DNA of 64,000 nucleotides from Lytechinus pictus (Eukaryota), in assembly GCF_037042905.1 (NCBI RefSeq), contig NC_087245.1:1302001-1366000 (forward strand), written 5' to 3'. A model generated the notes under the pieces. The model searched no databases and was not told where the DNA came from. It saw only the letters and a list, made by a program, of their open reading frames with translations. A program made the translations under genes and the position numbers. Below are positions 10,817-57,200 of the stretch, in pieces. How positions within the stretch are numbered: position 1 is the first letter of the stretch; each line of letters opens with the position of its first letter.

Positions 10817-11326
10817 AGAAAGCATGAGGGGTCAGAGAGATAGTGTCGCCCATTTCGATATTTAAAAAAAAATTAATGGAAATGGTGTGGGGATATAGGA
10901 CAGAGAATAAAAGAAAACATATTAAAAAAAATATTTGGGCCTACATTACCCCCGCGGACATAATGCCCTGAGAAGTTAAAATGACATTTGTTTTTGGTTG
11001 TCTTGCCGTGCAAAAAGACGACCTGAAATTGATGACAACTAGCCCCCATATAAAAAATAACTTGGCGCCATCCCAGATAAGATGCATCAGTGTGCAACCC
11101 CAAAAATTGTTTTGTCAGTGTGGCTTGCCATAAACGCATTTTCTCTCAATGCCGACGGTGGCGGGCGGTGTGCAAAGAAGATCATGCCTACGTAGGACTA
11201 TGTCTGGAGGTGTCTTTCCAAGGACCATTCTTTGTATCGCCCAAATCGGCTTTGTGAAACAGTTGAGCGATATCTCGTTCTTACGTAGAATGGTTCTACG
11301 AAAGACCCTTTCATGCAACAGGCCCC
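10817..11326 (-). mobile_element. Uninterrupted copy of the repeat at 3654-5184
   Basis: High-identity inverted match; one end resembles the ggggcc-type MITE termini. Confidence 0.85.
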
Positions 11327-30200: not shown

Positions 30201-33200
30201 CTCTTCACTTCCATGATCTACCACATGGTAAAGATAATGCCTCTCCTTGATAAATTTCTTTCCAATCAAACAAACATTATTGTACTCTTTGTTTTTCTGT
30301 TATCTGATTTACCAATTATTTCACTCTCACTGTATAAAAGTTTGTACTTAGAAACACTTTGTTTTAAACTAGTCTTCTTTACCATACAAGATTATGTATT
30401 ACTTGAAAGTTGTACACAGGATGAAGGGATAGCTACATATACCATCTTATGGTAACTGTAATGGCTTTCTAATGTCCCACTTGACAGTTTGTTTTCCTCA
30501 ATATTTGTAAATACCAAGTCAATTGTTGTACATCCATTTGTTGTGAATTCACAAATAAGTTGTGTACATTTGAATAACTGTGTCATTGCATTCACAAGCT
30601 TTTGTTTGTTTGGAGTAGAAGTAAGCATATTGATATTGAAATCTCCCATGATAACAAGTGGTTCATTTGGGTTAATATAATTACCCAAGTGTTGTAGTGC
30701 TCTGTGAATTTTTCTCCAATTTTCTTTAGGACGACAATACATAGAAACCACTTGCAACTTAGGACTATGAGAAGGAAGCTGAACTACTGTCATTTCAATT
30801 GACTGGAAATTACATGGAACAACTGTACATTGCAAGCCTTTCCTGTGGTATACAGCACTTCCATAGTGTGTACGTTGTGAGCTAAAGTCATTTCTTGACA
30901 TCTTGAAATTATCCATTTCATACTCATATGCTTTATCCATAGAACACAGTTTTGTTTCAACAAATAAATTGATATCGGATACCTGTAAGTTGAAGTTTTT
31001 TTGTATGTCTTTCATATGAAGGTGCAATGACTGGCAGTTGTGGAAAGCTATTTTGACACAATCTTTTGGATAGTCATACAATGGCTTGTAGCAAAGAGTC
31101 ATTGATTTAGACTGTCTCAAACGTTCCATTTCTGTCATCACATCATCTGAAACTTTGATATGAGCCAGGTTTAGAGGACCAATGATATGCAAATTTTGTA
31201 ATGATGGCACTCTACTGAAAGCAACATAATGAAGATGGACAGCCTTTCTGTCAGGTAATTGGACAACTGCTCTATCTAGAGTGCTTCCTTGAGCTCTGTG
31301 TATTGTTTTAGCACATGCTAATTGGAGGGGGAATTGTTTTCTTGATACTTTCACTGCTTTGTATCTCCCAATTGCAAACTCTCTGGCTATTGGTTTAATT
31401 GGTGTCCAGGACTGATGAATCGCATTGTTGGTATGTTTTGGATATTCATGTCTCAGTTTGAGCCCTGTTTCTTCTGTCTCAAAAAGTACCCATACTATTT
31501 CCACATTCCCACTCTTGTCATATTGGAAATATTTTGAAACACATGCTGCTCCATTAACTAATCCATCTGCTGTGTCTATGTTGACAGTTAGTTCAGCTTT
31601 GAGCTCTAAAGCAAGATTGCATGTTTTAGATAGCCCCATTTCTTTGGCTTTGGCACATGACAAAACTTTTTGCTTGACTTCATCTGTGATATCACCAATA
31701 ACTATGTCATGAGATGCCAAGACAGCTTGGTTTGCTACACTACTGTGTAATTGCTTGTTATGTGCATCAACAGCCTCATTGTGATACAACAAATGAGTGA
31801 CATCAACTGGGTAATTCTCATCTTCTTTAGAGATTATTCTACCTTTTAGTAATTTAATGTCTTCTTTGGTTTGCTTGCCTTCTCTCATTCTGTTCAACAA
31901 TGCTGCATAAGCTACATCTTCTTTTTGTCTCATAATGTCTGTTAATTCAAACAGCTCGAAGTTGTTGGTCCATACATTTGGTGCCAGAACTTCTGTACTT
32001 GATGTAGTAGTTGGATTTTTAAAAATCCAAGTGTCCATTACTGGCTGCAATTGGAAAAGATCGCCAATAGCTATAATACTGACACCTCCAAATGGTTTTG
32101 ATACATTCATTACTTCTTGTAATCGTTGGTTTATGAAGCAAAACATCTTTGTTCCAACCATAGATATTTCGTCGATGAATACAAGCTTCAATTCACCAAG
32201 TTGGGTTCTGAGGGTGTTGCGTTTGTCATGTGATAAAGGTTTATAGCTAAAACCTTGGTTAGCAGGAATGCAAAATGCAGAATGGAGGGTTTGACCCCTG
32301 ATCAAATAGGCTGCTTTACCAGTAGGTGCTGTGAGGAGTACCTTAATTACATCTGGATTACTACCAGATTCTGTGTTATAATGCCTCACAAGTGCCTGGT
32401 ATAGTGACTTGATTACTCTTGTTTTTCCAACTCCTGCACCTCCACTCAAGAAGAGGAGTAACTGTTCATCTGAAGTTTTCACTTTGTTTAGTACATGATT
32501 AAAGAATTCAGATTGCTTTTGATTAAGAGAAGAAACAATTTCCCTGAATTTACTATCAGACAATCTATTTCTGATTCTCTCTTCTTGCATGTCTGTTCCA
32601 GTCGATTGTATACCCAATTCAGAAGCAATATCATAGCTAGTGAAGAGATCTTCACCTTCTATAGCATTTCTATCTTTGCCAAACTTATTTGCATTTATCT
32701 CATTAATATGTTCATTGCAAGGAGCTACATTATGAAGGTTTTCTTCATTTGAGTCATTAAGCAGTTTTTGTTCAGCCATATCTAACTCTTCAGCATACTG
32801 GTTGTACTCTTTCTGTTTTTCTTCTATTACTTGTTTTACCATTTGGTATCTTTCTTCATATGTTTGGCAGTTTCCAATGATTTCACTCTCACTGATGTAA
32901 GGGTAAAAGAGCATCAAATTTTCTCTGTAGTAATTTTCTGGATCTTTTTCTTTGTCATATCTCACATAGCGTATCACTTTTTGCTTTTTCCTTCGTTTCA
33001 TAATCACTGTGTTTGAGATTTTCAATTCACCAAGACATGTTTGTTTATTTTGATATAGATCAGAGTCATCAGGTTCATCTTCTTTGTTATCATCACTGTC
33101 TGTTTCAGGCAGTTCTAATTCATGCACTTTTCTCTTCTTCTTGAACTGTACTTTTTTCATATCATACCATGCAATGAAATCTGCTAAGCACATGTCCCGG

Positions 33201-36200
33201 GCCTTCCTTGGCCGTTCTGAGTATCTCTTGATGTTATTGCTGCACTGAATGTCTTCACAATCAGCAGGCAAAGCATCAAGTTGCTCTGAAGGTTTGAGTA
33301 TAAAAGGTCTCTGATCTGGAGGTGAAGTGTTAACAAATGCATGCCCACATGATGAATGCTTTAGTGGCATTTGTAGAGAGAGATATATTGCTTCAGGTGC
33401 ACTAATCTCAACATGTTTAAGAAATTTGTTTCCAATCAAACGAACTTGATCTTTGATATCAGTTGATCCTTTTCTAGCTTCATCACATGTTCGTCTCAAG
33501 AGTTCACTCATGCCTCTTTGGCCTTTAGAAACATAGTTCACAACATACATTGCACAAGCATAAGCATTGGTAATGAATTGTATGTCTGTATTTGCTTGCC
33601 ATGCCTGGAGTACAGCAGGGTTATACGCATTCACACGTACATTGCATGGTTCTCGTTTGAGAAACACCTTTGAAGCTGAAATAGAACTTCTGATTGCAAG
33701 CTCATAATCATCAGGTGAAATGCCAAAATGGTCAAGAAACAGTTGAAGAGTAAGTTGCTGGATTTCAGGTTTGTTTAGTTCAATTTGTATTTCTTTCCAT
33801 TTCTGTTTATGTAACTGCTTTTCTTTGTCTTCCATTTCAACTGGCAGAGGTTGTAAGATCTTTGTAGACTCCATAGGAGGCAATGGGAAATTGAACCTGC
33901 ACACTTTACCCTTTTTTCGACAAGTATGTGTGTGTCTGTGACATTGCAGTTTTTTCAAGTTCTCATTTACACCCAAACTTTGTCCGTCTGTTTCAATGAT
34001 GTTGTCAATGTAATTTTCAATGTCTGAATTTGAATCTATCTCAAATTTAGGGGCCCCATTCACCCACAGAAGACTGTGCAGATGGGCTGATCCTCTATGT
34101 TGGAACTCTATCCTGTAGAAATGTTCTGAAATTTTCCCAAGTGGCTCACATGAACCTTGAAGGAAATTTTGATAGAATTTTTTCACTCTGTGATCAAAAT
34201 ATCTTGTGACAGTGACAGGATCTGATCGAATAAGTCTATTTTTTGTTTCCCAAGTGAAACTTGAAACATCTTCCGCACTATACTGTTTGTTGTCAACAAG
34301 TTTACCCAAAGATATTAAGAGATCAGTCCAATGTGACTCAGCAGAAGACAAAGAAATAAACCATGTTGGTAATCCTAACTGTCTAATCATTGCAAACAAA
34401 TCCTTTTTGGCTGTTTCCCAGTATGGTGGAGATCCTCTTAAAGTTCTGAAAATTCTATATCCTTCATCTAATTTGACCATGGAGTCAACAACATCTTGTT
34501 GTTTGACATCTCCTGCAGTATATGACTTGCCTGATGTTTTAACCCGCCTGAGTGAAAGCCATATCTTATCTTTGATCTGTTTCATTTGGAGTTTCTTGCA
34601 TTTGAAAAAGATGTTTGTTACAGATTTTGCTGCTCTTCGATCAGAATGTCGTAATTCTAATTTGCAGATATCACTGTACTTGAGAGGTATTTCTCTATCT
34701 TTGTTACTTGGCCTTCGTTCCCCACAAAATATAGTTGGAAATGATAATTCCTCAATATCAGCCTGTAATGAACTAATTGGTATATTTCCCTCACTGGGTG
34801 CAAAAGAGAGAATGTTTTGTTGATCATCAACATTTTGTGGATACAACATAGTGTCCAAACTTCCAACAGGTTCTTTTTCATCAATTTCACTCCAATCAGA
34901 GTCACTATCTTTTTCTTTCTCCTCGGTTTGGGAAGCAGAAACATTAACTGCAGTAGGTACTATGTTATCTTCACAAGTGCTCTCTTCGAGAAACTCTTTC
35001 CATTGAGTTTTATGCATTTCTGCAACATGAGTTGGCCAAAATTCATCTAAACCGTCTGTAACATATTGTTTAAACAGAGGTTGTTTCACTAAGTATTTTG
35101 TTGCTTCAAAACACTTCTGTGGTCTGATGTTTTCAAACATGTAATGACTTTTGTACCGAAGACGTTTCTTTAGTTTTACAGGGATGGTATGTGAATCATT
35201 GATAGAGCGAGGCAGTGAATTTACAATTGAAATATTGTTGGCAGGAACATTAACAACATTCCCACGGATTCCAACTTGTCCACCACTTGGCAACTCACGA
35301 AGTTGGAAAAATGTATTTACTGGGGAAACCAGCCTCTCTTCAAGTGGGTTTAGTTGTAGCTCTGTTGGACAATGAGGAAATCCAGTTCTATTAGCTGAAG
35401 AAAGTGGGGGGAGTTTATTCTTTAGCATCCAACTCTGACAAGTGTGGCAAATCCATTCTTTGCCTTCAACACTTAATGTTCCAGTGATGCACTTTGAGTG
35501 AAGAGATTTATCAGTATTCCTAACAACAAATACATCATTAACAGACTGTTTAAACCATAGCTGCTTGCAGCATGTGCATATATACTCACATGCTACTGAT
35601 ACTGCTTCTTTAAAGTGCTCCACAAGTTCATCAATTGTATTGGAGGGAAATCTGTTGCTTTGTTTACGTAAAGCGTCATCTTTAGATTCTTTCTCTCTGT
35701 ATGCTGGATTGCTTCTCCTTTGTTTGTTGATGTTTCTCTCAAATTCTTGGAATGACGGAGCTCTTCTTCTCTTTCTATTGTTTCTTTTTTCAATTTCTTT
35801 ATATTCCGGATCTTGTCGTCTTCTCTTCTTGAGGTTACTCTCAAACTCTTGGAAGGATAGATCTTTTCTTCTTCTTTTGTTTTCTCTTTGTTCATTTTCT
35901 TTGTATTCCGGATCTTGTCGTCTTCTCTTATTGAGGTTACTCTCAAACTCCTGGAAGGACGGATCTCTTCTTCTTGTTTTGTTTTTTCTTTGTTCATTAT
36001 CTTTGTATTCCGGATCTTGTCTTCTACTCTTCTTGAGGTTACTCTCAAACTCTTGGAAGGATGGATCCTTTCTTCTTCTTTTGTTTTTTCTTTGTTCATT
36101 TTCTTTGTATTCCGGATCTTGTCGTCTTCTCTTCTTGAGGTTACTCTCAAACTCTTGGAAGGATAGATCTTTTCTTCTTCTTTTGTTTTTTCTTTGTTCA

Positions 36201-39200
36201 TTTTCTTTGTATTCCGGATCTTGTCGTCTTCTCTTATTGAGGTTACTCTCAAACTCTTGGAAGGATAGATCTTTTCTTCTTCTTTTGTTTTCTCTTTGTT
36301 CATTTTCTCTGTATTCCGGATCTTGTCGTCTTCTCTTATTGAGGTTACTCTCAAACTCTTGGAAGGATGGAGCTTTTCTTCTTCTTTTGTTTTTTCTTTG
36401 TTCATTTTCTTTGTATTCCGGATCTTGTCGTCTTCTCTTCTTGAGGTTACTCTCAAACTCTTGGAAGGTTAGATCTTTTCTTCTTCTTTTGTTTTTTCTT
36501 TGTTCATTTTCTTTGTATTCTGGATCTTGTCGTCTTCTCTTATTGAGGTTACTCTCAAACTCTTGGAATGACTGATCTCTTCTTCTCTTTCTATTGTTTC
36601 TTTTTTCATTTTCTTTGTATTCTGGATCTTGTCTTCTACTCTTTTTGAGGTTTTTCTCAAATTCTTTGAAGGACAAATCTCTTCTCCTCTTTCTGTTTGC
36701 ACTTTGTTCACTTTCCTTATATTGTGGGTCTCTTCTTTTCTCCTTTCTGAGTGTCCTTTCTAATTTTGTATAGGAAGAATTCTGTCTTTGCTTACGCTTG
36801 TATTCCATCATATAGGTCTTTCTTAGGTTTTGAGACAAGTGTGTATTAGCAACATTTTGTCCAATTGACCTTGATAGCTCTTGAAAGTTTGCTTGAGAAA
36901 CAAAGTATGAACTGAGAGTGTCTAATCTTTCAGTTGGGAATGGTATAACTTTGCCTTGCTGTAAGCACAATTTGAGATGTTGTCTGATTTGTGAATTGTC
37001 AAATCTTTGAGTTTGTGGTGGCACATTGAACAGACAGCTAAATGCAGCAGCTATTGCAAAAGCTCCACAAGCTGGTTCAGTTTGTTGGGTTATTGGAATG
37101 TACTCTATATGCACAGCTGTTCCATACAATAGATTGATTTGAGGCATTAAATGCTTAATTCTGTCCTGTGAAGACAATGAATCATACACAGATACTCGAT
37201 TGGTGGAAGGGTCATATGAGGATGTGACCCAATGGTTATCAACATGATGGAAGTTGATACAATGTTTATCTCTAGGAATATCAATAGAAACTCCTTTAGA
37301 AAGAAGAACTTTCATGGCTGCAGGTGTCACTTGTCCAATGTATTGATCTAGTTGTGGACTATGATTTTTCATAATTGATACAGCTTGTTGTATGACATCA
37401 TCAGGGATGTATGCTGCGTATTCATCCACTGAACTCATAGATTCTTTATTTAGATTCGACAAGGATAAGTGTTTTTTGTGAGTATTATTATTACTGATTG
37501 CAGTCAGTTCTTCTTTCCGTTGCTGAGTATTCACACTGCCAATATTACTCTGACCATGAGCACTTGATAAAATGCTATGACTCGGGGTTTTATCATTCTT
37601 GTTCACAGTGGTAGTGCATTTGTGACTTTTGAACTTTTGATAAGTACTAAACCTTAGGTTGCAAGCATGACAGTATGAGCATTTATGCTGAAGAAGTCTT
37701 TTCTGGGTTGAAAAGCTTTTACAGCAGTTAGTACATTTACAACTTCTTAATTCGTCACAGAGATCTTGATCATTAGAAGGTACTTGTTTAATGCACTTAT
37801 GTAAGCTTATTTTTTGCTTGGAAGGAAAAACATTTCCACATTGTTGACATAAACAACATTTGTGTAGTTTCATCTTTTGCTTGGTGGAGAAATCTTGCCC
37901 ACATTGTTTACACAAAGTGCATGTATGACTTCTGAAAGCTTTCAAATACTTGTAAGTTTGAGTGCATTCATTGCATGTGAATATGTTGCCATTGTATATA
38001 TGGCTCCCTCTATTTCCTACAAGAAAATGATCTTCGTGGAATCTTTGTGTCAGTGAGGAAATAATACAAGTGACATTGTTAAAAGAAATATAACAGAACG
38101 CGAACAGCGTCAGGGTAAACATGTAAACAAAATAAGACATCCTTATATATAGTCAAGGTTATAATTGAGTATCAGGAGAATCTAGTTGAGATTACAAATG
38201 AGAAACCTCTGGAAAGTGACTTTGTTCATTTCTCCTTTACAGATGCCTTTCAGTAGTATCCATATACCGCAAGCAAAGTACTGTCGAGTGTAAGATTCTT
38301 TCTGTTTCAGTCAGTGCATTGAAGTGTTGCCCACGCAAAAAAAACTTGGAATACTTTGTATCCTGCAGTCTGAGGTAAAAAAAAGAAAATCATTGACTTT
38401 TAACACTGTACAATGTGTCTGTTCATACAAGGCCAAGGCTAAATATCTACTTTTGAGAGATTTTGAGTAGGTGTAATTCTATACTGATTAGCAATGAATT
38501 GATAAGTAATTCTGTTAAATGCCATTAATTATGATTATCCTCATTAACATCATCTCCATCTTTTTAATCAATTATTTCTTGAGTATTTATGATATAAATT
38601 GATATTATTGGGGTTATCATTCTTTTTTATCACCATTATTACATTATTCATGTATTATTAATTTGTTTGTGTATGAAATGATAATAATTGCTTTTTATTT
38701 AAATAAGCGGTAATTTTAAAACGAAATTCAATCTTTGTCATAAAATGATGTGTCAAAGTGAAAGAAAATAAGAAAAGAGAATAGTGAAAGTTTAGCTTAT
38801 TTTTGGCCGTAATAATAAAATTCATCAAATGTGATTGAAACTGTCTTTTTGTTACCGTCACTGCATTTTTAAACTAAATGTAATTATACTGACAAAGATT
38901 TTGTTAATGATATAAATTTGTTCAATCCTTGGCCCAATAACTTTTGAACATTTTGTATCCTGCAATTGAGAATAGAAGACTGTTCATACTGAAACACTAT
39001 AATGCCTTTATATACACCAAATGGTTATTTGCAGTTTGCATAAAGATATAGACAAATCCTGATGCTTTTGAAGTATATTGTATTTCTAAGAAAAGAATAA
39101 AGTACCAAAATAATGCAAAGTTTGATGTATTCAAATTTCTTACCAAATTGATTTGATTCTACAGAAAATTTTCCCCTTTATTTTGCACATTACACATGTT

Positions 39201-42200
39201 TTTTTGTGTCTAATGTTGAGATTTGATGTAATCTTTATGTAAATGCAAAATCTATTTAGCTTAAAGTTTTGAGTACTCTTGATCTCATTGATAAGTACAT
39301 ACATGTATTTAGTCATGTGCTCGTACATCAGATCAATGTACTCGAATTCACAGTTGAATACCTACATGTAATTGTAATTAAACTCTCGTTTTTCATCTTA
39401 TTTTGACATACTTTTGCAAATTGAATTCCATCTAATTTTATCTTATGATACTAAATAATGAAGGTATAGTATAATTCATTATCATTTTAATAACACACTG
39501 AAGTTTAGATTAAAACCTTCATTCATTTAGTAGCTTTCTCAATTATAATTTTAAACTGGAAAAGTGTTTACCATATGATTAGTGATGAAAAGATTTTTCA
39601 AACTTGAATTTGCTTCAAATCAACCTCATCAAACAGATCACCTGTAATTCAAAATACAGAAGAAAAAAATTTGTCAAAATTAGAATACTCATTCACTGTC
39701 AATTCAAATGATTGTTTGCTTTTTGCATACAGATTATAAAAATTAAGACCTAGTATTCTATAATAGAAATACATATTGTTTTAATTTCCAGTTTAAATAT
39801 GCAATCTAACTATCTAGGTTTGTTTTATTAGTATTTCAATTTTCAAAACAGTTAATGTTCACTATTGGAAAAAATGATATAATAAATCACACATTCAAAA
39901 TTTTTATAGAAAATTAATACAAAAATGTCATAGACAACCATTTTCATTTCTTTCATTTATATTACAAAGCAAAATTGAATATAGTTTATACACTATTTTG
40001 CCTAACAAATTCCATATTGTATTATTGCCAATAATAAATTAAATTCAATTCTTTACCCAAAATCAAAATTTGACAAACTTATCAAATAAATAAAAGAATA
40101 ATTTTGAAATAAATTGAATTCTGTATATAAATGCATTGAATGACTTTCTTTCATGAGATACCAAAAATATATCACCTACAAAGCCAGCTTATTATAGCAC
40201 CAAGTCAAGTATATTAGATAATTTTTGATATCTCATTATAAAAGCATCCAATATGGTTAGAACTACTGTATATATTTTCTGTTTAATCCTATCATTATGT
40301 GTATGCAAAATATCCATGCTTTCTTGAGTGCATCATACAGTCCTTAAGACTCTGCATAAAATCATACTATATAAAGAGAAAATGAATTGTACTGGAAGTA
40401 CATGTAACACATAATTGGTAGACAAGAATAAAGAAAATAGATGGAAGATATTATTTGATAGAAAGAATGAAGCTGTATACAGTAACATCCAGAACTGTTC
40501 ACCTTCTCTTTTTAGAGTATGATTTCAATGCAATGTCTACACATGTATGATTCTTTGAGCACCCATTATCTAGAATGCAAGATAATTTGCTTTTCCTAAA
40601 TCCTATATTTAAGTATATTGTTAGTTTCCCTTTCCTAGTGCCGTTCTATAGGGAGTATAAGCGACTTATTTACTGTTGAGGCTTTCCTCGATCGCACCAC
40701 CATACTCCAATACTAGGCACCGTGTTTCTTTATTTCAATTGTGTATGACCGAAATTCTGTATTCATACGCCCTATTAGGACTGTTGGACTTCAGCCACTG
40801 GCTTCGGCACGTACTAGCCCAGAATTTTTCTAACAGGTCATATTCACAAGGGTACACTTAATACATCAATTTAAAATAAATCCAAACCTAATGTAGTAAA
40901 GAGAGCAATCAAATTCTGGATTAAATTTCCAACTTATAGAATTGTTTTTAAATCTCAAAAATTTTGAAATTTAAAATTAAATCTATAAGTGTCAAAATAA
41001 ATCCAGTATTTAACTGTTTCTAACTACAGTCAGTTTGGATTAATTTCAAATCCATGCAATGTAGTGTGTCTACTAACAATTCTTCAAGATGAAAATAATC
41101 TATTGAAGAATGAAGATAATCTATTGAAGAACGAAGATAATCTATTGAAGAATGAAGATAATCTATTGAAGAACGAAGAATACATGTAACTTCTGCTACT
41201 ATTGGCGTCAATGAAATATCTGTCAAATTTCACTCCTATTTATACATTTTACAGAGACCCTCTGCACCAAGTTTTCATCCAATCAAATTGTCTTCCTACA
41301 AACAACCAATCACCTTTAAAGACAAAAAAAAGAACCAATCAAAATCAAGATCCAAATGTTCATTAAGCTCATTTGAATATGCAAAATTTATTCATGGCCA
41401 CTCCTCAGGTGTTTATCTCGAATTAGCAGCTGTTTTTAACTGAAAAACAACTTTTACAATGAACAAACAAGAAATGTACATTCAAACAAACAACATTTCT
41501 AATGTATTACATTTTTAGGTCAGTGCACTTGTACTTTCATGACCACAACATTCCCAAAGGTCAGCTAACCCAAACTTTAACATAATCTATACAAAACAGG
41601 ACCCTAACCTCACACTTTCAACCAATCACTGTTCTTGAGATTTGCCTATAATGCAAATAAGGATCCTAAGCACACTTGTGTCAACCAATCACTAAACATA
41701 TATATCATCCAATCCCTTCACAGCAAAGTCCACCAATTGCATTGCTTATCTATTCTGCACTGACTAATTGGAAATGACACTAAATAATAAAGATAACTAT
41801 TTGCATATAATTTGTATATTATGCAAATAATGATTTAGTTTTATGCCAACCTAGAAGGAATCTTCAAAACAGATTCCTTCTAGGTCTGCATACAATTCAA
41901 CTTTTTCATGCCTTTACCCACCATACATTTATGTGACCCTATTCTCATTAAAATCCTAAAACTAGTTTAGTCCAAACTACTGTAATAAAGGTGCACTAAT
42001 GTGAATTAGCAATCTTCCAAACCAATTTCAAATGCACCATCCCAAGAAGCCAATTGATTTTGAGGTCAAATTAATAGATTTAAATTTTTTTTTGGTGTGT
42101 CGATAGATGACACCAAAATACACGCCAAGTTTAGAGTCCGCAGGTCAAAGGTCAGACCTCATTAAATATGCGAGATGGTTTCCGCATGATAATTTATAAA

Positions 42201-45200
42201 ATACCCAACAGATTTAAAAAGTTTGTGGTATGCAGGTTGATCAAACCAAAATACAGGCTTAACTTCAAATTCAGAGTCCGCAGGTCAAAGGTCACAGCTC
42301 ATTAAATATGCAAGTTGGTTTCTGCATAACTTATGAAATATTCAAGAGATAGAAAAAAAAATTGGTGTGTAAATAGATGACACCAAAATACAGGCTTAAG
42401 TTTTAATTCGGAGTCCGCAGGTCCAAGGTCGCAGCTCGTAAAACTTGCAAGTTGGTTTCCGCATGATCACTTCTGAAATATTCAACAGATTTAAAAAGTT
42501 TTTTAGGGGGAAGGTTGATGACCCCAAAATACAGGCTAAGTTTGAATTCAGAGTCCGCAGGTCAAAGGTCACAGCTCATTATATATCCAAGTTAACTTTC
42601 GAAATATTCACCAGATTTAAAAAATGTTTAGTGTCTCAATAGATGACATCAAATGACCTGACTTTCATATCTTCTATTAGAGATTATTATACAAAGGGCG
42701 AGCGAGTCTTTAGGTCAAAGATCTAAATTTCTTCATTATACAGTGCGTATCAAAAAAAAGTTTACACTTAGAAAATTATACATTTGTCATATCCTGAAGA
42801 TTTTTCCACATTTTAACATTTGTACAGATCCATTTAAGCAAATGACTATATAACTGTCAAAAAACATTTCCACTTGAGTGAGCACCACTTACTTTTCAAA
42901 AGTTAGTCAATAATGATTCGCACAGAACTTTCAAATAGTTATGCGAATAAAAGTAGACCTTTAATAATCATGAATAACACGTCGAATTTAGCTAGTAAAA
43001 TTGATTGTAAGATATATTTTACCTTTTGTATTTTGTTTCCTTTCCCAAACTACTTCAAGGTGTGCATTGCACCCCACCCCACCCCACACACCGAGGCCAT
43101 TGTGACAATATTTGCTTTACACTTAGCTGTGATTTACATAAAATGGCTTAGGCTTGATTTTCATTTTGTCAATCATTGTCAAGCTTGGGAAAAATGTGGA
43201 GAAACATGTATTTAATAAAAAATGAAATGTAAACCCACTATAAATGATAAAAACTTAGTGAAAAAATACTACAGATATCTGGTATAAACTTTTGTTCAGA
43301 TTCACTTATGTCCTCAGATCCAGCTGACACAAAAAGAGTAAAGGTTGTGTTAATTAAGTGTTAAAATTTCAATTTGAGTGGTAAAATGGTTAGAAAATGC
43401 TTGAATGTATCCGATTTATTTCAATTGACTTAAAGTGCAAGGAAAATGTAGGAGAAATGTTTCGCAGGGTAAGTTTGATTTCGCCCTTTCCCCTTGACAC
43501 AGCGTACAAACAAGCATTTCTGTGCAAACAGATTTCTGCGAGCTTTACAAATCGGACAGTGCTCACTCAAGTGTAACATTCTGTCAAAACTTTTACTTTC
43601 ATTGGATAGATGAGACCCAAACCCATGATTATATGTCAAAAAATTACCCACATGGTGTATATTTTTTAATTCCCAGGGCGTTTTCAAAGTGTAAACTTTT
43701 TTTGATACGCACTGTATATATGCATATTGGTTTCTACATGATTTTAAGTTCAATCATATTGAATGAATTTGTGATTACATTATTCAATACCCGTTTTCAA
43801 ACTCAGCACTGCTGCTTGCTCTGATCGCGCAATGCAGGCGAGACAGCCAGAGGCGTTCCACTTGTTAAACATGCTAAACCTGTCAAGATTAAAGGGAACA
43901 ACCTACATGTAAGACCATTGATAGTACCTTTGCTCAACTTTCTATACTAACTGTCATAAAAAAATGACTTTAGTGCAAGTCTCATTCGGTTTTCTAGTGC
44001 GAGGTGCCATTGAATGAAAGGTATGATTGATGATAGGTAAGAGTTCAGCAAGACATTTGAAATTATATTCTTGTCATGTTTTGTTTTTCTTTGTTTTCAG
44101 AGAGGTCCAGCAGTATCGACCTGAAGTAAGAAACTCTGAGGCTGTGGTTTTTGCTATCAAGGTCTCTGCAGCTTTCAGTAGTAATAACTATTGCAGATTC
44201 TTCAAACTTATCAGGTAATCTCATTTAGCATTTCTTCAATTTTGCTACAAATCTGGGAGAAAGAATGAATAAATATGGATGATGTATGTAAACAATGTAT
44301 GAATGCCTTGAGTGTCCATTTTAATGCGAGTAATTGGAAAGGTATTTCAAGAGGTTGTTAGGTAGCCTACTATATTTGCTATGATCACAGACAACTGTGG
44401 CAGTGGTTTCTTATTCTTTACAACCCATTCTCATAATCTTATCTTGCCTTCCTATTTGTGTACAGGGTGGCTTCATTCTTAAATGCATGCATCCTTCATC
44501 GCTACTTTGTCCAGCTTCGATGTCTGGCATTAGAGACAATGAACAAAGCCTTCACCACACCCAAGGGTACCTCAATGTTTCCTACCGCTGAACTCGTCCA
44601 TCTTCTGGCCTTTGAAGATGATGAACAGGTGAGGTGTTCTTGTTCCTACACCATTTTCTGTCACAGATGGATACATTACTTGTAATACTTAATCTGATGA
44701 ATATTGTGATATAATAACAAAGATGTGAGGATTAATTTTTAAAACCTTGGCATGGTCATAGGTAAATCTGCCTTGTTTTCTTCTTATGCCAATAAGGTGT
44801 GTTAAGTGCAGAAATACTAATTTGTTACGGGTGTAAATTCATTGGTAGTAGGCCCAGTAATGCTCCATTGCATTAGCTACTGGTGGACCGGAGAAGTCAT
44901 TGCCAAAAAAAATTAAGCTGCATGCTTGATAATCTCTGTTGCTGGCTTAGTAGCAGGTACACTCAGATCATGAAAAAAAAGCAGTAAGAACACTTCCTAT
45001 TGAACGGAATGTGTATACATTTTTAAAGAGCTTAGAAATCCAGTAATTGAGTTTTTCTTATTTTTGTTATAGTGAATAGTGAAATGGATTTTAAGAAACG
45101 TCTACAAGAACTACTATTATTACGTTTTATAGGCTTCAAATTTCTGTGAGTGTCATGGTTTGGGTAATGCAGATGGTTGCATCCAACTTAGCAGAGGTGG

Positions 45201-48200
45201 GTTCATCTACCCGGAGGAGGCCATCACATCACAAAGAGCGCCCTCTGTAATTGAAGCTAAGAATGATCAATCAGTTGGAGAGGTAAAATAAAGTAGTTTA
45301 AAATTTCCTTGTATTTATTATTAGGCCTAATGGCCCATATTTTGAATTCTGGTTAAATAAGGCCACGTTCTATGCCTGTAATAAAAACTCTTTTTGTTTG
45401 AATTATATGGATCTAATGTTTCCTCATTCTTTAGTGGTGATGAAAATGTTTTTTATTCCTAGACAGCTATTATTTATTTGAGTGCCAAACATTTTAATAA
45501 ACTGAACCTCTAGTGTCAAAGATTTGTTAAACCATATGTTAAGGCCAAAGCTTAAATCGAATTGGAGTTAAGAATACGAGCCTAAATATATCTTTTTCAT
45601 GGTATTCATGAACATGCTTTTTTTTGTATCCCTTGACATGTTTTACTTTGTATGTTTTACTTGTCTAAATGAATACAATACAAATACAAAAATGCTTCCT
45701 TTATTCATTTGATCCAAATACCCAAACTATGTTACTGTAGAATTAAGAACATTGACTTGCAGGTCTAGCTTTCTTCAATGTTATTGGTATTTATGTATAT
45801 GTGGATTGTTTGATATATCCCATAGGTAGTAAACAATGGCCCTCTTCCTTTAGCTCCACCACATACTCCTATATCAAGCTTTGATGTGAATGGAAGACTT
45901 CTAGACAGAGGTGTGGAAGATAAAACCGGTCAAGGTACGGATAGTTTGACAAAAAGAAGGGTTCTTAAAATTGGATGAATAATCTTGATTTGTGTTATAT
46001 CTGAATTAATTGTGCTATTCATTTATCCAGTTGTCTATATTTAGCTCATTTTATTGTCTCACCTGCATAGCAGAGTGAGACTATAGGCGCCGCTTTTCCG
46101 ACGGCGACGGCGACGGCGGCGGCGACGGCGGCGTCAACACCAAATCTTAACCTGAGGTTAAGTTTTTGAAATGACAGCATAACTTAGAAAGTATATGGAC
46201 CTAGTTCATGAAACTTGGCCATAAGGTTAATCAAGTATTACTAAACATCCTGCCTGAGTTTCATGTCACATGACCAAGGTCAAAGGTCATTTAGGGTCAA
46301 TGAACTTAGACCATGTTGGGGGAATCAACATCAGAATCTTAACCTAAGGTTAAGTTTTTGAAATGTCATCATAACTTAGAAAATATATGGACCTAGTTCA
46401 TGAAACTTATACATAAGATTAATCAAGTATCACTGAACATCCTGCATGAGTTTCACGTCACATGACCGGGGTCAAAGGTCATTTAGGGTCAATGAACTTT
46501 GGCCGAATTGGGGGTATCTGTTGAATTACCATCATAACTTTGAAAGTTTATGGATCTGATTCATGAAACTTGGACATAATAGTAATCAAGTATTACTGAA
46601 CATCCTGTGCAAGTTTAGGGTCACATGATCAAGGTCAAAGGTCATTTAGGGTCAATGAACTTTGGCCAAATTGGGGTATTTGTTGAATTACAGCCATAAA
46701 TTTGAAAGTGTGTTGGTCTAGTTCATAAAACTTGGACATAATAGTAATCAAGTATCACTGAACATCCTGTGCGAGTTTCAGGTCACATGATCAAGGTCAA
46801 AGAACTTTGGCCACGTTGGGGGTATTTGTTGAATTGCCATCATATCTCTATAGGTGTATTGGTCTAGTTCATAAAACGTGGAAATAAGAGTAACCAAGTA
46901 TCACTGAACATCTTGTGCGAGTTATAGTAGTTTTCAAAATCAGCACTGCTGCTATATTGAATCGCGTGATGCAGGTGAGACGGCCAGAGGCATTCCACTT
47001 GTTGATATTTATAAGTCCCTTTTCCACAGTGTGTGTTTGTCAATCATATTCTTATAACCAAGTCAAGGATTTAAAATTTACTCTTGGAGCTTTGTTTTCC
47101 TATCCCGTAACAACTGATATTGGTGTTGTGTGACTTTGATATGAAATTAATCAATTTGAAAATGTTCTGATTTTTGTTCGTTTGCATTTTAATGTTAATT
47201 TTTCTGTTTTTTTTGTTTTACTCTGCAATTGAATATGTAAACAACCAACAGAACAGTAATCTAAAGTACAGTAGTTTCTTTTAAACTTCACTATAGAACA
47301 GATTATTATTTTTGCCCAACTCATAGTGAAGATGAATCACCAATTTTGACTATTTCCCCAAATGAACGTCAACAAAATTTTAGATATCAAAAGAAAAGTC
47401 ATGCACACCCTGTTTAGGTAGAATAATTCTTAAGTAAATAAGGCTCAATTTCAATCTTTATCATCCACTTTCAAAGTTTTAAAGAAGGGATTTTATTTTT
47501 TCAAACTTCCATTTTTTTTTCAGAAATGGCACAACCAGAAAGGAAGATTGAGAAAGCAACCCTACAGGAACACCTGCCAATCCAACAAGTGATCCAGTTC
47601 CAGGAACCACAAACACGGGAGGTTATTCCAGAAGTTACTCAATATCCACAACAGGCTGTTTTACAAGCTAGGGTGGAGGAAACTAAACCCATTATAAACC
47701 AAGAGGTAGGTTGGCTTTGAGTATAAGGTTATAAGTGCAAACAACTTAGTAATTAATCTTGTGCAATACAATGAAAGGGAGAATGAGGAAATTGATTGTG
47801 TACATGTATGTTTGAAGAAATAAGGTACACTAAAAGCAATTCTATGTAGTCAGATATTGGATGAGGATACTTGTTCATTCATGTTGTACTTGTAATGATG
47901 TGTAGAATTTCAATATAATGAGGCAAATGACCTTGGCATTGTCCATGGTTGGGGAAAAATTCATAACAACATATCCATTGCCCCAAATGAGAGAGAGAGA
48001 GAGAGAGAGTGATTGATTAAAATACATAATTTTGTAGCTAGGCAATAAGAAATGTCTCCTTTATATTTTTAACTCAGTCTTACATTTGTTTCTTTCCCAC
48101 CATTTAGGTTGTTAAAGACATCACCAAAGAGCTCTTTTTAGATGTCATTGATGAGATGATAAGAGACCTATCTATAAAGTTTATGGATACCCTAGCTCTC

Positions 48201-51200
48201 ATCCAAGCAACACCTGGTGTTCTTACTGACCTCATAGATGCTGAACTACGTGCATTGAGCCATTGTGTTGCTATGGAGACTCTAGAAGAGGAACGCTATG
48301 CTGAGGCCGTGAGAATAGAGCAAAAGTAAGAATTGACAGTTCATTCCTAATAAGGAAAAAAAAACTAAACTAGCAATTCTTTGTATGTCGCTTTGCACCC
48401 TTTAGTTTCTGTGACTGAGTGATGAGAATGCAATGAAAGATAGAAGGAAGTGGAGGAAGGAGGAAATGTCATTTTGGCATGAGAGTCGGTTACCCTTCGC
48501 AAAAGGGAATCGCTAACTGAAATATACACGTATGATTACGTTATTATTTCCTGGCCAGTGATTATTTGGCTTGAAAAATGCTCTCTTGTTTGTAATAATA
48601 TTAATATCTATACTACTTTTGTTTGTAATCTGCTTTTGTGTTCTTGTCGGGAGCCATCAATATGGCCACCAAGATGGATGCAGTGTGTATCTTTATCTAA
48701 ATGATGTATTTGGAATTGACAAGTCATGTGGTCAACTAGTTAAAAGTCCATGTATAATTTCTTATTATTAGTACCCTTGATTGTGTCATCCGTGCTGATA
48801 CTCTTACCTGTGCATTGCTTATATTACTTATCACTGTTTGTTTTTTCTTTCACAGGAGGGCAGCGGAAGAAGCATCAAGAAAAGAGAAAGAATTGAATGC
48901 TTTGAAAGAAGAGGCCTGTAGACAGATCACAGAGGAGATCTTGGATGAGATCATGGAGAGAACTCTTGAAGGGATTATTGAGAAGGAAATTAGGTAGGAC
49001 CATCTTCACTATTTCACACAGTATAATATCTGTAGAACTACACTTTGTAATGGGACAATTACAGATGATCGATGCAATTTGATATCACTCTTTGTTTGCC
49101 TGTATTATACCTTGCCTTCCTTCTTGATAAATTTAAACATCAAAATTACGCCTCTCCATCAACCTAACCATCTCCTGAAAACAATGATCTTTCAGCTTTC
49201 TTGATGTCATGATATTCAACTATACTGAAAAAAGACCCCAAAAATCAAGCAAATCTTCAAAAGACATAAGTGCCATTTGAATGTGCTAACAAAAACCTTT
49301 TCTAAATAGATAAAATGTGTTTTACAAAGAAACAAAATGCTGTTACAATCCAAGAGGCCTTGAATTATATATACAAAAGCAGAAGTAAATTTAAAATAGA
49401 AAATAAATGTTGAGAGTCAAACCTGATTGGCTGTTGATTTTGTATATTCCCAATACTACCATTCCTTCACAGGATGAATTTTAATCACTTTCAAAGGAGA
49501 AAAAAAACACACAAGATGCTTTATTGCTGAAAATGTTACTATAAATATCAACCATTTCAAACTTGTTATGCAGTGAGTATGAAGCTGAGCTTAGGAGACA
49601 AGCCATTGAGCGCTGCAGCTTCATCACGTCAGAAGAGATATTACTTGACCTTGTCATGTCTGAGGTCAATGCCATATCAAATGAGGTCATTACTATAGCA
49701 ACAGCTGAGAGAGACAAGAGACTTGCAGAAATTGAGGAGGCTTATCGACTTAGGCAACTCAATTTCCTTTACCAAAAGTAAGTCATATTCATGTTTTATA
49801 GTCCAGAATTAGAATATCAATTTGACTGTGCCTTTGAATAAAAATGATAATGTGTTTGAGTTTAAATATATGTTCCATTATAAAAGGACATTCTCGTCTT
49901 AGAATCTAGTTTGCATATTTATTGTTGCTATGTCTGTCAAGCTTTCTCATTGTCTAGACAACTTTTGTCTGAGAAGTATGCATAAAATTTGAATATTGTA
50001 GTAAGGAGTTCTGATCCCTCCATACATTCCATGATTTCATCATGAATAGCATCAATTCAAGTATATAGACTGGATTTTAGTGTTCAGGCCATAGTGCAGG
50101 CACTCACTCATGCTTTCCTGAAATGATATTCTGAAGGGTCAGTAAATCAAAACATGTGATACTGCATTCTAAACTCTTGATTTCATGGTACAACTCAAAT
50201 ACTGCCTGTAGATACAGGTGAAAATACCTTCTCAGGTTCTTCCCTCCCTCGCTCACTTTGCTGCCTCGCACTTGAATTCAAGGAAATTCGCAAATGCTCC
50301 CTGGGGCATCTCTGTATAATGAAGTTTTGCCTTCCAATAAGATTGGTGTCATTATGTGTTTAATAGATGGTGTCGTGCTCATGCAAAGAGGGTAAAGATA
50401 CGTCGAGCTCTGGAGACCTTTCCTGCTGGACCACCCAGTCAGAACACAGCGGAGCAGCTTGAGGTCCTCTGGCCAAAGCGAAGGGAACACTTTGGTGAAG
50501 CGCCCTCTCCTGTTGACCAAGACACAATGTTGAGGTCGAGAGAACCTTTACCCATGTCTCTCAGCACTCCTTATGGGTAAGTAAACCATATTTGTAATTG
50601 AGGTCAAATCTCACTTCAAACCTGTTTACATCAGTTCTGCCCATCAATTTAAAGGAGATATTAATTGCTGAAGCAAGTTTCTTTCATTTTAAATGAGCAT
50701 TTAACAGAAAGTCATCCACCTTCGATTCCAAAACACTTGTGTTGCTAATCAATAATCTAAGAGTACAATAAAGATTGAAAGAAAAAAAAAAAATAATAAT
50801 CTAAGAGTACAAATCGACCTGTATTTTGCATCTCAACAGTGTTCTAGTGTCAACTAAGGTTCCTTACATTTTGCATTCAGCAGACATTATGTAGTGCTCA
50901 AGCACATAGACTACAAAGCATACATTACTGCTCTTATTGTATTTACTCAAATTCTGAGGTTAATCATGTCCAAGCCAAAAATATTTATTACCACAATGCA
51001 GTGATTTTTATTTGATATCTTCTTATTTTTATTGAAGTATTTGCAATGCCTTACTGAGTCATTGTAAGATTAACTAACATTGCCTTCCTAGTTTGCTTGT
51101 TAGCTGAAAATCTCAATCTTCTTTAGAGAGATTCTAATTATCATTGTATTCTTGTTGATATACAGTGTGGTTAGTGAGCGGGAATCCTTAGCTAAACACA

Positions 51201-54200
51201 TCATGCAGCATCACTACCTTACCTACATCAGACAACAGAGGGCGTGGCAACCTTTAGACCTTCCTGTCATTTATAAGGAGAACACCTGTCCTTCCCAGCA
51301 TGCATCAAACCTAACACGGCAGGATGGGGCAGCATGCAGATACTGGAAAGTGGTTTCCTCTCTGCCACAAGGGTCATGTGTCAACAGGAGCCCATGTAGT
51401 TGGCTGAAGGCTAAATTGAGGCGTGGCCAGATTTCAAAGGAGCTTAGGAGAAGTAGACTCAGAGATAATGAGAATGTAAGTTTACTTCACTTGATTTGTT
51501 CATTGAGTAGATCATCCTTTCATTTAAAGATCTGTGTATCCTGGGTATTCTTATGTCACATTTATGATAGTCTCGTCCCTTCATTTATAGGAATTTGACC
51601 TGTAAAGCAGATATTGTATGAGAGCTCTATGGGATATATGTCTATTATTGGGTGTAAGTTTGTGGCAATGGCGTGTTAAGTGTTAAAAACTACACACAGT
51701 GGGCAATTCTTGCTTTTCTGTTCTATATCTTTCTGTCTTGTGACCAATGAAACTATTCTTGTTATCTTAGGTGGAGACTTTGAGTCTGTTCACACAGAGA
51801 TGTGGTTCCAATCCATTGGGTATCTGTACTAGAGCACTCATGGGACTTCCTGAAGGCAAGGATACCAGATACCAACTGATGGGATCCTCAGGGATCATCC
51901 TCGTTGTAGAGGGTGAATCACAGGTGAGATTAAAGTGAAAGAGGGTGATGATGGTGGTGGTGGGGATGAGGGTGGTACTGGTGGTTGGTTGTGGTGGTGG
52001 TGCTGTTGGAGATGGAGATGGTGAAGCTGCTGCTGCTGCTGATGATCATATTGATGATGGTGATGAATATGATTTTGAAGATTAATAAATAAAAATATTA
52101 ATGATAATCCAATTTTTTGAACCAAAACAAATTATGTAGCATTCTGACCACCAGTCTTTTAACTGGTCCTTCAATTTGATATTTTGTCATGCTTTTCACA
52201 CCTATCATATTTATGAATGCAAACTCTCAACCTTATACCCGTCTTCCAATTCTTTCCAGGCTTGTCTCAGAGATGCCCAACAGAGACTGAATGCTATCCT
52301 ATCTCACATACCTAAGAGCCCATCTCTCCCTGTGCTTGTGTGTGTAATAAGTGATGAAGATGTGACATCATTCCAAAGCAGTGTGTCAGAAAGTCTCAAG
52401 TTACCTCAGCTGACACATGAAGGAGTGCTTTCATCTTGGAGAATGATTAGTATACCATGGGATATTGTCAAACTAGAAGCTTCTCAGCAGGTTAGCGAGT
52501 CATTTGTATTGAGCTTAATCAGTTTGTAGAGCATTGATGTTGAGATGTGTCGACAGGGGTTTAAAATCTAATCTAATGTGCTTGTACTCTTTAGAGCACA
52601 AATGTTTTATAAATTTGCTATGCTTTATTGTAATCATTTCCTTTATAACATAGATGAAGATGTTCTGCTTTATGTAGATGATGCACATTGGCTCTGTAGA
52701 TTATCGCTTTTAGACTTACTCCGTATACGCTTTATTCAGAATAGCACAATATTGGATGGTATTATGGTTTTCTGAAGCATAACTGAACAAGGTTTAAGGA
52801 AAATGCTTCCCATTGTGCATCAGTAATATTACTGCATCATTGCAGTATTAATGCGTATGAACATGATATTTGCTGTGCAACCAGTAATTTCTTCTTATTG
52901 AACTTCATTCTATTTCCTTTTTTTTTATCAGCTGGAGGAAGGTATAGGATGGCTTGTCTCTCATCATCCTAAACCACCAGCTGTGGTGTGTGAGACGGTT
53001 AAGGAGTATCTAGATAATGGTCTATCACAGTTCTTTAGCATCAATGTCAATCAGCTCTCTAAGCAGAGGAAAGAAAGCGGACTGTTTCCATTGGTCAGTA
53101 CTGAATATATGCTCTTATTCTATTCCAAAATATTTTCATTATGGATCCCTTGCTTTTTATATGATATTCCTGTGGAAACCTAAGTGGTCTTTAGTCCACA
53201 TTTCTTTCAAACTGGTTTGATTATGTTTCCACAATGCTTAAAGAATCTTAAGTTGGCAAGCAGTCTTTTTTTGCATACTATGGTTCCTTTTCATAATAAT
53301 AACCAATGCACAATATCCATAACAAATATACTGTCAGCCCATCAGATTGAAGGATTTCATGACCTTTTAAACTGTTACTACAAATTTGTTATTATAATAA
53401 GTTTTATGAAGCGGGCCTTGGGATAATTATGTGGCATTATTATTCAGATGTTGAGTTTTCAAGGTAACTGTAAATTGGGAAGTCTTTCTCAGTCATCTCA
53501 GAGAGGAATAAGGATTACATCCCTATGAATAGTAAGATTATTTGATTGTGTAATGAAAGTATTTGATTGTATGTATGAATGATTTATTAGCAATTTTGAT
53601 ATTAAGCATGTACTATTACATAATTTTTCTTCTTTATTTCAGTCACCTCAGTCGATAGTAAGTCTGTATAACTGTGTTATCAGTCATCTATCGTCTGTAG
53701 CTGGGTCGTCATCTCTCTCTGATATCTCATGGCCTCCAACAGAGTTTACAGGTCCTCAACATCCAGGTACGTTGTATTCTCCAAGGCCCTGTCTTGCAAA
53801 GAGTTGCGATTGATCCGATCAACCTCAACTATATGGAAATCCATCAAATGTCATAATTTTTTCTTCAGAAGATTTGCACGAGTACTTTGTGAACAAAGAG
53901 GAAGCACATTGAAATCGTCAAGATAATGATGAATGTATGAGTATGCATCATCTCTAGAAAATATTTTGAACAAATTTGCAATTTAGATGTTGACGTTGCT
54001 GGCCGTCAATAGTTGTGATTGATCGGTTAAATTGCAACTCTTTGTAAGACGGGGCCCAGATCTGACAAGAGAAGATGGAATGTAGTGAATTTATTTATTT
54101 ATAATTATTCAATGGCTCCAAAATAAATGAATGTTAGTTATAACCTGCTAATGAATGTGATGCTGGCGAGGACAAATTTAAACCTTTTCATCTTGATATT

Positions 54201-57200
54201 CTTATGTATCTACAACTGTGAGTTGAAGAGGATGCAAATATGCAAGTTATTTTTTTCTAGATGACCTCAGTTAATTATTTTAACAGTAATTACTCCTAAT
54301 ATTCTGCATTTTTTTGTTTCTTTTAATTTTGTTTTTTCAGATCTTCCTTCCTCAGACTGGAATAGTCCTAGCACTCTTAGTCATCTTCATACAATCATTA
54401 ACAACCTCAAGCTACCTGATGTGCCTTCTCTAGAAAACAGTGGTAAGGATTCCTAAATCTGCACTTAACGTCAAAGAACCTCAACTAAATTCTTAATCCT
54501 CATAAGTATTCTGAATCAAAACTCTATCCAAACCCTAACATTGTCTTTTGAGAAATGGAGAAAGAAATTATTGTCACAGAAGTCCCAGTTACCAAGTGAG
54601 ATATATTTTATATTCCTTATTTATTATGGAAGACAAGTTATGAGCAATATAAAAATCTAGACTTATTGAAAGTTTGTCTTCCAAAACCTTCATACTGTAA
54701 GGCCTAATTGGAAATGATAATAATTGGGCTTCACAAAATAAAGGTTCTTGTTTCATCGATGGAAGATTTCTATTCAAGGTTTAGTTTTTGCAAGTAAAGG
54801 TTAAATCTGTTTTGATCAGCATTGTGGAAGCTTATGGCTCTGATGTCTGCAACAAATTGTTTATTTATTTTTATTTTATTGTTATTTTCATGGAATTTAT
54901 ACCACGTTGATTACCCATTTTTGTCTCGCCTGCATAGCAAGAGCGAGACAATAGGCGCCGCTTTTCCAACAGCAGCGGCGTCGTCAACATTGAAATCTTA
55001 ACCAAAGTTAATTTTTTGAAATGTCATATCTTGTAAAGTATATGTACCTTGTTCATGAAACTTGGACATAAGGATAATCAAGTATTACTAAATATCCTGC
55101 CTGAGTTTCAGGTCACATGACCAAGGTCAAAGGTCATTTAGGGTCAATGAACTTAGACTATGTTGGGGAATCAATATCAAAAAGTTTTTTACCAAGGTTA
55201 AGTTTTTGAATTGTTGTCATAACTTAGAAAGTATATGGACCTAGAAGAAATAACCAGTTGTCTCATGATGTTTCAAACGTAGTTGGAAAGCGACGTTTCG
55301 TCTGCAAGCTGCTAGACTTCTTTAGGCAATGAGCAGACGCTGCTGCGCACGGGTTATATAGCGTCGGTGAGGGGATGGCGTGCTTGGCTGCACGCTATTG
55401 TCTGGCTCCTCTCAGGCGTGAGCCGCGCTGTGATTGGCTGAAGCCGCCGGCCAATCTGTGCTCGCACCAGTGCTTGGCACGCTGTGATTGGCTGTGATTG
55501 TCTTTGCTCATTGCCTAACGAAGTCTAGCAGCTTGCAGATGAAACGTTGCTTTCTAACTACGTTTACATCTTGAGACAACTGGTTATTTCTTCTACTCAA
55601 TCCTTCACCACGATGAACCTCTTCCACATCATATATGGACCTGGTTCATGAAAGGGTAATAGTGTATCACTGAACATCCTACCCGAGTTCGGGGTCACGT
55701 GACCAAGGTCAAAGGTCACTTACGGTTAACGAACCTTTGACCATGCTGGGGGTATATGTGGAATTGTAATCATAACTTTAAAAATTTATGGATCTAGTTC
55801 ATGAAACTTAGACATGAGAGCAATTAAGTATCCCTGAATATCCTGTGCAAGTTTCAGATCACATGATCAAGGTCAAAGACCATTTTGGGTCAACGAACTT
55901 CGATAATATTCAGGGTATTTGTGGAATTGTAATCATAACTTTAAAAGTTTATGGATGTAGTTCATGAAACTTGGACATAAGAGTAAACATGTATCCCTGA
56001 ATATCCTGTGCACGTTTCAGGTCACATGAGTAAGATCAAAGGTCATTTAAGGTCAATAAACGTTGGCCGTATTGGGGGTATTTGTCGAATTAGCATCATA
56101 ACTTAGAAAGTTTATGGATCGAAACATGTAGTTCATGAAACATAGACATAAGGGTAATCAAGTATGTTTTTACACGTCTTAGGTCACATGATCATGGTCA
56201 AAGGTCATGTTGGGTCAATGGACATAGTATTTGATTATCATATGAGTATTTTCTTTTGTGAATGATTATTCAGTAGCTGTTTTCAAAGTCAGCACTGCTG
56301 CTATATCGAATCGCGTAATGCAGGCAAGCCTGCTAGAGGCGTTCCACTTGTTATTAAAATAAATCAATGAATATTATGATTCATCCAGTAAACTTGAATT
56401 GTGAGTCTCAACTTTACAGTTTTCACAAATTTCCAGTAAAAGATTTATAATGTTTAACATTCTTATTAGAAGATCAGAATCAGGTAATATTCATAGCATC
56501 CCTATTGTGTCATATTACTCAACCAAACAAACTTGTTTATATTCTACTTTAGAAGTACAATACTTGTTTCTCCTTTATTTGAAAAATAAGCATATTTATC
56601 TCTACTTTGGAAAATTGATAAGCATATTATATTTTTGCATACTAGTATTCCATTTTGTATAGATGTTGTCAGAATTGCTACTCTACTTTTTTTTCTTTCC
56701 TTTTCCCTTTAGATTGGTTATCAGTTTCTGAAGCATGTATCAAATATGTGAATGACCTTCCAGGCAGAAACAGTGATAAGGCACCACTCTTATCCAGGTA
56801 ACCTCTTCTTTATTTTGTCTCAATTTCTTAAATTTTATGACCCATAGTTTTCCATTTGCATATAACCTCTCTATCATTCTATTCAGATTATATATCCTCT
56901 CCTCGTATAGTGATTAAAGAAGTTTCATTTGTTTTAATACAGGGTGAGATGGTTGTTGGACAAGAGTAGACGAACCTTTGAAGATACATGCTTTATGACC
57001 TTTGACACGGAAGGATGTGAACCGTCTTCCCAGCATGCACCATGGGTAGACATCTTAGAGGAATGTGTTACATACATGATGACAACCCTGTCCAGTGGAA
57101 TGGAAGGTAAGAATGGTTTAGCTTCCTTTGAAAACTATGGAATGCAGCATAATTTTATTACATTGTGAACAATGATACTTTAATATCCACCACGTGTATG

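Follow-up and report, generated by a model that had tools for sequence, protein, structure and literature searches.

The GANP/MCM3AP gene of Lytechinus pictus carries a long Helentron with an enzyme frame and short non-autonomous relatives (HINEs). The question raised by this locus is why the left subTIR, the hairpin arm that adjoins it and the distant right subTIR differ together between the long element and one HINE, in a manner that keeps the partners complementary. We analysed the whole stretch of 64,000 nucleotides, which we call the window, and the coordinates of its features are given in Table 1.

Table 1. Positions of the elements, their terminal motifs and the host exons in the window.
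Feature	Position	Strand	Remarks
Long Helentron	26311..43866	+	17,556 bp; G/C/C variant; motif matches; GANP-intronic
Left subTIR and hairpin arm, long element	26313..26338	+	subTIR 26313-26325, variable G at 26318; arm 26327-26338, variable C at 26333
Right subTIR, long element	43832..43844	+	variable C at 43839
Tandem array common to long element and HINEs	26393..27079	+	units of 192 and 162 bp
Uninterrupted frame, 2586 aa	30392..38152	-	DUF6570, Helitron_like_N (Rep), PIF1 helicase, AP endonuclease
140-bp tandem array	42089..42593	+	only a 12-14 nt box in common with the HINE unit
Second right-end-like motif	42692..42733	+	GC-rich 12-mer, then hairpin
Nested element	42742..43715	.	terminal inverted repeats of ~28 bp; lies between TA dinucleotides
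HINE (non-autonomous Helentron)	46054..47003	+	950 bp; A/T/T variant
Left (5') subTIR, HINE	46056..46068	+	variable A at 46061
Partial inverted repeat (hairpin arm), HINE	46070..46081	+	one bulged base; variable T at 46076
GC-rich microsatellite, HINE	46099..46133	+	
Central tandem array, HINE	46134..46923	+	units of 192, 163 and 146 bp
Right (3') subTIR, HINE	46969..46981	+	variable T at 46976
Short 3' palindrome, HINE	46983..46991	+	3-bp stem only
Second HINE	54921..56352	+	G/C/C state; right subTIR pairs 11/13
Family fragment	18458..18709	+	last array unit and decayed right end; 10/13 pairs
Exons of GANP/MCM3AP	23357..53765	+	Pfam profile matches

The host gene was identified as GANP/MCM3AP on the plus strand. 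The exons that flank the long element match positions 109-188 and 185-222 of SAC3_GANP, which are consecutive parts of the profile, placing the long element inside one GANP intron; as far as 53765 there are additional exons with matches to MCM3AP_GANP. The gene probably extends past the matched exons on both sides. Since the exons beyond 54921 gave no GANP match, we can only infer that the second HINE is also intronic in this gene. The preliminary description had recognised an autonomous element with non-autonomous partners in one gene, and the protein domains, the element ends and the flanking GANP exons agree with it.

The ends of the elements are fixed by contigs from public runs, because the matches start at 46054 or stop at 43866 beside unrelated, T-rich flanks. 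Four of 24 public runs were compared with a stretch of the window, two of which (X11 and X12) gave few contigs (365 and 42). The match begins at 46054, the left boundary of the HINE, in 266 contigs of run X1 and 86 contigs of run X15, and 77 X15 contigs stop matching at 43866, the right end of the long element; the right boundary of the HINE at 47003 was set by alignment to this position. At the contig junctions the flanks are T-rich with TT at the ends, and no target duplication was seen. The 5' subTIR lies 2 nt inside 46054 and the 3' subTIR 22 nt before 43866, which is the asymmetric arrangement in which the 5' repeat stands 0-4 nt and the 3' repeat at least 20 nt from the element end. A 5' hairpin is formed from the partial inverted repeat. 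Past the 3' subTIR there is a short palindrome with a stem of only 3 bp, kept in all three full copies with one wobble; the 3' stems given in the consulted portions of the Helentron and HINE papers are 5-11 bp. The HINE combines a microsatellite with central tandem repeats and has no coding frame, as is characteristic of HINEs. Two other assignments were rejected. A canonical Helitron (HLE1) has 5' TC, 3' CTRR, A/T insertion and no inverted ends, whereas the ends here are T-rich with subTIRs, and a MITE does not fit asymmetric repeats without a duplication. The Helentron/HINE family is very abundant in the public runs: 43,019 contigs of run X1 match a 2.6-kb stretch, and the summed depth, which is not a copy number, exceeds 1 million at the HINE end against ~60-135 on most host bins.

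The coding frame of the long element is oriented opposite to its ends and matches the Pfam profiles PF14214 (E 1.9e-23), PF05970 (E 4.7e-27) and PF14529 (E 3e-07). Rep, PIF1 helicase and a C-terminal AP endonuclease thus stand in a single frame, as in Helentrons, together with DUF6570 (E 3.7e-13), a domain that the consulted text of PMC11417382 gives as a marker of HLE2. Rep motif 2, at residue 1345, has the Helentron form, with F/Y-x-R ahead of the motif and S in RGS, according to the diagnostics in the consulted part of PMC4067079. We found 138 related proteins; the nearest, from bivalves and coral, share the domain layout at 46-67% identity (best 67%), and proteins of mussels, pearl oyster and coral are among the best matches at 46-56%. 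By eye, the N-terminus of the enzyme shows zinc-finger-like repeats. At 35727-36723, a 102-bp unit in 9.8 in-frame copies gives a basic 34-aa repeat within the enzyme, and the relatives of the enzyme have similar repeats. Past its stop codon, another unit stands in three copies at 28765-30325 with a spacing of ~680 bp. At 41300-41890, upstream of the enzyme frame, reading by eye showed several CCAAT-like boxes and ATGCAAAT motifs, and a perfect 13-bp hairpin lies at ~41851-41885. The interval 41300-41890 is perhaps the promoter of the long element, and 5' exons, joined by splicing, may lie near 38370 and 38960.

The long element also contains foreign parts, namely the 140-bp array, the second right-end-like motif and the nested element, and may be composite. 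The motif at 42692-42733 is a putative element end, and no left partner of it was found in the window at up to 2 mismatches. In the consulted text on FoHeli of Fusarium oxysporum, composite elements and reversed frames are explained by self-insertion (PMC5148889). One candidate reading that we considered is that a HINE may have received a second Helentron and that the coding frame is part of the latter. The foreign parts and the possible composite origin make it no more than likely that the enzyme of the long element serves these ends. In run X1, one contig of 974 nt begins to match at 43865 and has 544 unmatched letters ahead of that point, which suggests that the long element is absent from this site in the X1 sample.

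The HINEs had been described as internal-deletion relatives of the long element. Relatives they are, but not by deletion of this copy. Alignment of the HINE at 46054 with the long element gives 85.7% identity across 754 nt of the left side and 83.8% across 74 nt of the right, and the part between them has no match; the last 60 nt of the HINE are nearer to the other HINE (52/60) than to the long element (49/60). Under the rule of Thomas et al., as given in the consulted part of PMC4067079 (subTIRs identical at 11 or more bases; the last 60 bp at least 80% identical), the HINE and the long element, with 12 of 13 subTIR bases and 49 of 60 terminal bases in common, belong to one family and subfamily. 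Based on the identity of ~85% and on the right end nearer to the other HINE, the sequences place the HINEs as sister lineages of the long element rather than as a deletion of the long copy.

All six terminal motifs were located in the long element and the HINE as claimed, and the left subTIR, arm and right subTIR do change together: where the long element has G/C/C, the HINE has A/T/T. With up to 2 mismatches allowed, the window holds 7 matches to the subTIR pattern, compared with a shuffle mean of 1.36, and none of 100 shuffles reached 7. Between the two elements the first 46 bases differ at two positions, which are precisely the paired sites, and the last 60 bases at 11, one of them inside the subTIR; the subTIR pairs are kept 13/13 in each. 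The covariation is one event between two haplotypes, among three complete copies and not over many. As one event, it adds little evidence for the mechanism.

When the ends were folded with DNA parameters, the left end alone formed the hairpin with a pair probability of ~1.0 at -9.6 to -11.2 kcal/mol, and the 13-bp duplex between the subTIRs reached -17.7 to -19.4 kcal/mol. Of the eight sets of bases that these sites could carry, G/C/C and A/T/T are the only two that hold both structures near the best on both strands; a step at any single site produces a mismatch on one strand and leaves a wobble on the other. When the complete HINE was treated as a linear molecule, the hairpin and the duplex had probabilities of 0.42 and 0.58 on the plus strand and 0.91 and 0.09 on the minus strand; in the circle the duplex leads with 0.87 and 0.69. 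With the ends joined, the subTIRs stand 24 nt apart; for the long element as for the first HINE the probability that they pair is 0.98-1.00, and those of the second HINE do not pair, leaving the hairpin only. The joined-end fold had no excess stability over shuffled right ends, 143 of 300 shuffles reaching it. Folding thus speaks for the possibility of the switch and not for its occurrence. Accordingly, the statement that the left subTIR must pair with both partners holds as far as both pairings can form, but "must" is too strong for one event and for a family in which the second HINE has lost 2 of 13 pairs without compensation.

The remaining copies are less regular. The second HINE contains a nested palindromic insert at ~55242-55595. 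Its first uncompensated change, CpG to CpA, is common to the fragment at 18458-18709, which carries C at the variable site of the right subTIR; the common change may mean that a lineage multiplied with one pair already broken, or that the two copies decayed independently. At 56319-56332, three adjacent changes in the right subTIR of the second HINE make a local palindrome perfect, an outcome expected of template switching. In the fragment, near 18693-18713, a different local palindrome stands at the corresponding place. A HINE of another family, with a 157-bp array and a CGTC-type microsatellite, lies at 19919-20448; the start of its subTIR resembles that of the present family, and at the same CpG it carries A at the left site and C in the arm, the base of the right site being absent. 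The second HINE, the fragment and the HINE of the other family may all be decayed copies. The hairpin arms of both families have their imperfection at roughly the same position (26327-26338, 46070-46081 and 19935-19947), and the arms of the oyster Cg_HINE_1 and _10_13 are likewise imperfect there in the consulted part of PMC7492417. The imperfection means that the hairpin stays weaker than the subTIR duplex.

During transposition of such elements, the Rep/helicase of an autonomous copy makes a nick at a T-rich end, displaces a single strand and inserts this strand between T and T. We consider that the best explanation of the locus, with a probability of about 0.6, is a high-copy Helentron family in which an active master copy gave rise to the A/T/T HINE, whose state was maintained by the importance of both pairings. 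All of the elements would then be members of one high-copy Helentron (HLE2/Helitron2) family, moved, in the case of the HINEs, by the long element or a related enzyme. The left subTIR would pair with the adjoining arm (~-10 kcal/mol) or with the right subTIR (~-18 kcal/mol), never with both. The hairpin would be the state while the left end alone is single-stranded, and once the right end is exposed as well, or has been joined to the left, the perfect duplex would displace the bulged hairpin and mark the end point. Such displacement was suggested by Bao and Jurka (2013), who, in the consulted text of PMC3627910, proposed that the 5' hairpin is destroyed, and the end point thereby set, when the 5' and 3' repeats pair. 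In the active master copy, the G-C pair may have become A-T at the three sites by way of CpG transitions, with a G.T wobble on one strand as the intermediate of every step, and the A/T/T state would have been retained since both pairings matter, a view taken from one event. The anatomy and the protein domains fit the Helentron class and speak for this explanation; the uncompensated second HINE and the HINE of the other family, with A, C and a missing base, speak against it.

On the one hand, agreement among the three sites could have arisen by chance, if three methylated CpGs deaminated independently after insertion and happened to be complementary. Each of the three sites, a CpG in the long element, is TpG or CpA in the HINE, a fourth terminal CpG (46992) has decayed too, and other copies show discordant CpG changes. 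CpG observed/expected also drops from 0.57-0.94 in the first 16 kb of the window to 0.19-0.47 beyond, over the GANP gene, a depletion consistent with gene-body methylation, which it suggests. However, of the 17 other alignable CpGs of the long element 14 are kept in the HINE, with three transitions, and the chance of three complementary independent decays is ~0.0014 (calculated post hoc), or 0.007 at a decay rate of 30%. Neutral decay within one copy is unlikely, and as an account of the triple change we give it very little credence. Given so low a joint chance, an active copy is the probable source from which the HINE inherited its A/T/T state. On the other hand, the bases may agree because they were copied, the left subTIR templating the arm and the right subTIR through template switching, or through mismatch repair in the paired structure, with no functional selection. 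The three sites are indeed complementary and able to pair, the local palindrome perfected in the right subTIR of the second HINE points the same way, and the triple change would be explained without intermediates. We are doubtful of this account, since templating by the subTIR should remove the bulge, which is kept in the arm of all three copies. Moreover, copying still needs the pairing, and it differs from retention of both pairings only in why the bases agree.

The three sites could instead be transposase sites of one motif on double-stranded DNA, drifting together with the specificity of the protein and without any pairing of strands. For cut-and-paste elements, inverted ends bound by protein are the rule, and the zinc-finger-like repeats read at the N-terminus of the enzyme would suit such binding. 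Families are also defined by a common subTIR sequence in the consulted part of PMC4067079. Nevertheless, the arm adjoins the subTIR with a 3-nt loop, which is the geometry of a hairpin, and related oyster families change other paired positions, which fits a structure better than one sequence code (PMC7492417, in part). We regard recognition on the duplex as improbable.

Small ssDNA viruses use stem-loop origins. By analogy, and as a tentative suggestion from the folds, the joined subTIRs of a Helentron might form one stem-loop around the junction and act as the nicking or strand-transfer origin of the circle. Equally tentatively, the predicted stem would have 13 bp, and its 24-nt loop would hold the joint, 2 nt away from the stem's 3' arm. 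With the same reserve, the subTIR asymmetry could exist for this joined-end stem-loop, and the bulged 5' hairpin could be the competing state of the integrated copy. If this is true, the "long-range" pairing would be a short-range switch, independent of element length (0.95 or 17.6 kb). We found no statement of this geometry in the literature searched, subscription reviews of Helitrons being outside its scope.

The closest published case is given by the pair Helitron-1N1_CQu and -1N2_CQu, two related non-autonomous Helitron2 elements with compensatory mutations between them (PMC3627910, consulted in part, as are the other papers compared here). They share with the present elements asymmetric terminal inverted repeats and a 5' hairpin formed from the 5' repeat, and the Helitron2 elements of that paper have the 3' repeat 20-30 bp from the end and, in some members, a reversed coding frame. 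They differ in host, in sequence and in the 3' palindrome, whose stem is only 3 bp here. The likeness, taken from the text of that paper, is one of compensation in general and does not imply a triple change at the same positions. The three-site feature and its mechanistic reading are, in this sense, already in print for the class, the mechanism as a hypothesis (PMC3627910). For DINE-1, Yang and Barbash (2008) likewise argued from a structure conserved despite sequence change (PMC2374699).

Helentrons, HINEs and DINE-1 have in common with our elements the 13-bp subTIRs, the partial inverted repeat by the 5' subTIR, the microsatellite, the central tandem repeats and the T-rich sites (PMC4067079, PMC2374699). 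The Rep/helicase/AP endonuclease frame with the F-Y-R and S diagnostics is that of Helentrons, and its minus orientation is also found in Helentron-Da-40 (PMC4067079). Helentron-HINE partners in these papers are 84-99.9% identical, so that the present ~85% is at the low end (PMC4067079, PMC2374699). The Cg_HINE elements of the Pacific oyster are similar in their modular layout, array units of 140-180 bp, insertion in introns and imperfect inverted repeat, with subTIRs of 11-12 bp (PMC7492417). Related oyster consensus ends, in our reading, differ at paired positions of subTIR and inverted repeat in Table S2 of that paper, a table from which the 3' subTIRs are absent. The present subTIR is not among the 11 subTIRs listed for Cg_HINE elements, and the terminal pentamer has no match in supplementary file 1 of the same paper. 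An autonomous candidate stands beside the HINEs here, whereas the oyster study could not relate one to its HINEs (PMC7492417). FoHeli is a Helitron2 with ATIRs and reversed frames, for which a joined-end amplicon was taken as a circular intermediate; our elements have an endonuclease domain and tandem arrays, neither of which is described for FoHeli in the consulted text, and no pairing model at the junction was found there (PMC5148889).

We conclude that the locus is an ordinary member of the Helentron class, with a plausible mechanism. Its value is as a ready test of end pairing and not as a new system, because an unbroken enzyme frame stands at one locus together with two haplotypes of the ends. 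The literature searched yielded no biochemical test of Helentron ends, and natural compensated variants would therefore be useful as reagents.

Other copies were also sought outside the window. Pattern scans found none in viral contigs or in prokaryote genomes, and in metagenomes gave first 0 and then 2 stretches, both chance matches with no hairpin or array; a protein-led locus search of viral contigs gave four candidates, none of which was confirmed. Within the window, long inverted repeats with several arms of 83-100% identity surround the 5.6-7.5 kb interval at 3679-11320 and are probably another inverted-repeat transposon, and many small MITE-like inverted repeats occur elsewhere.
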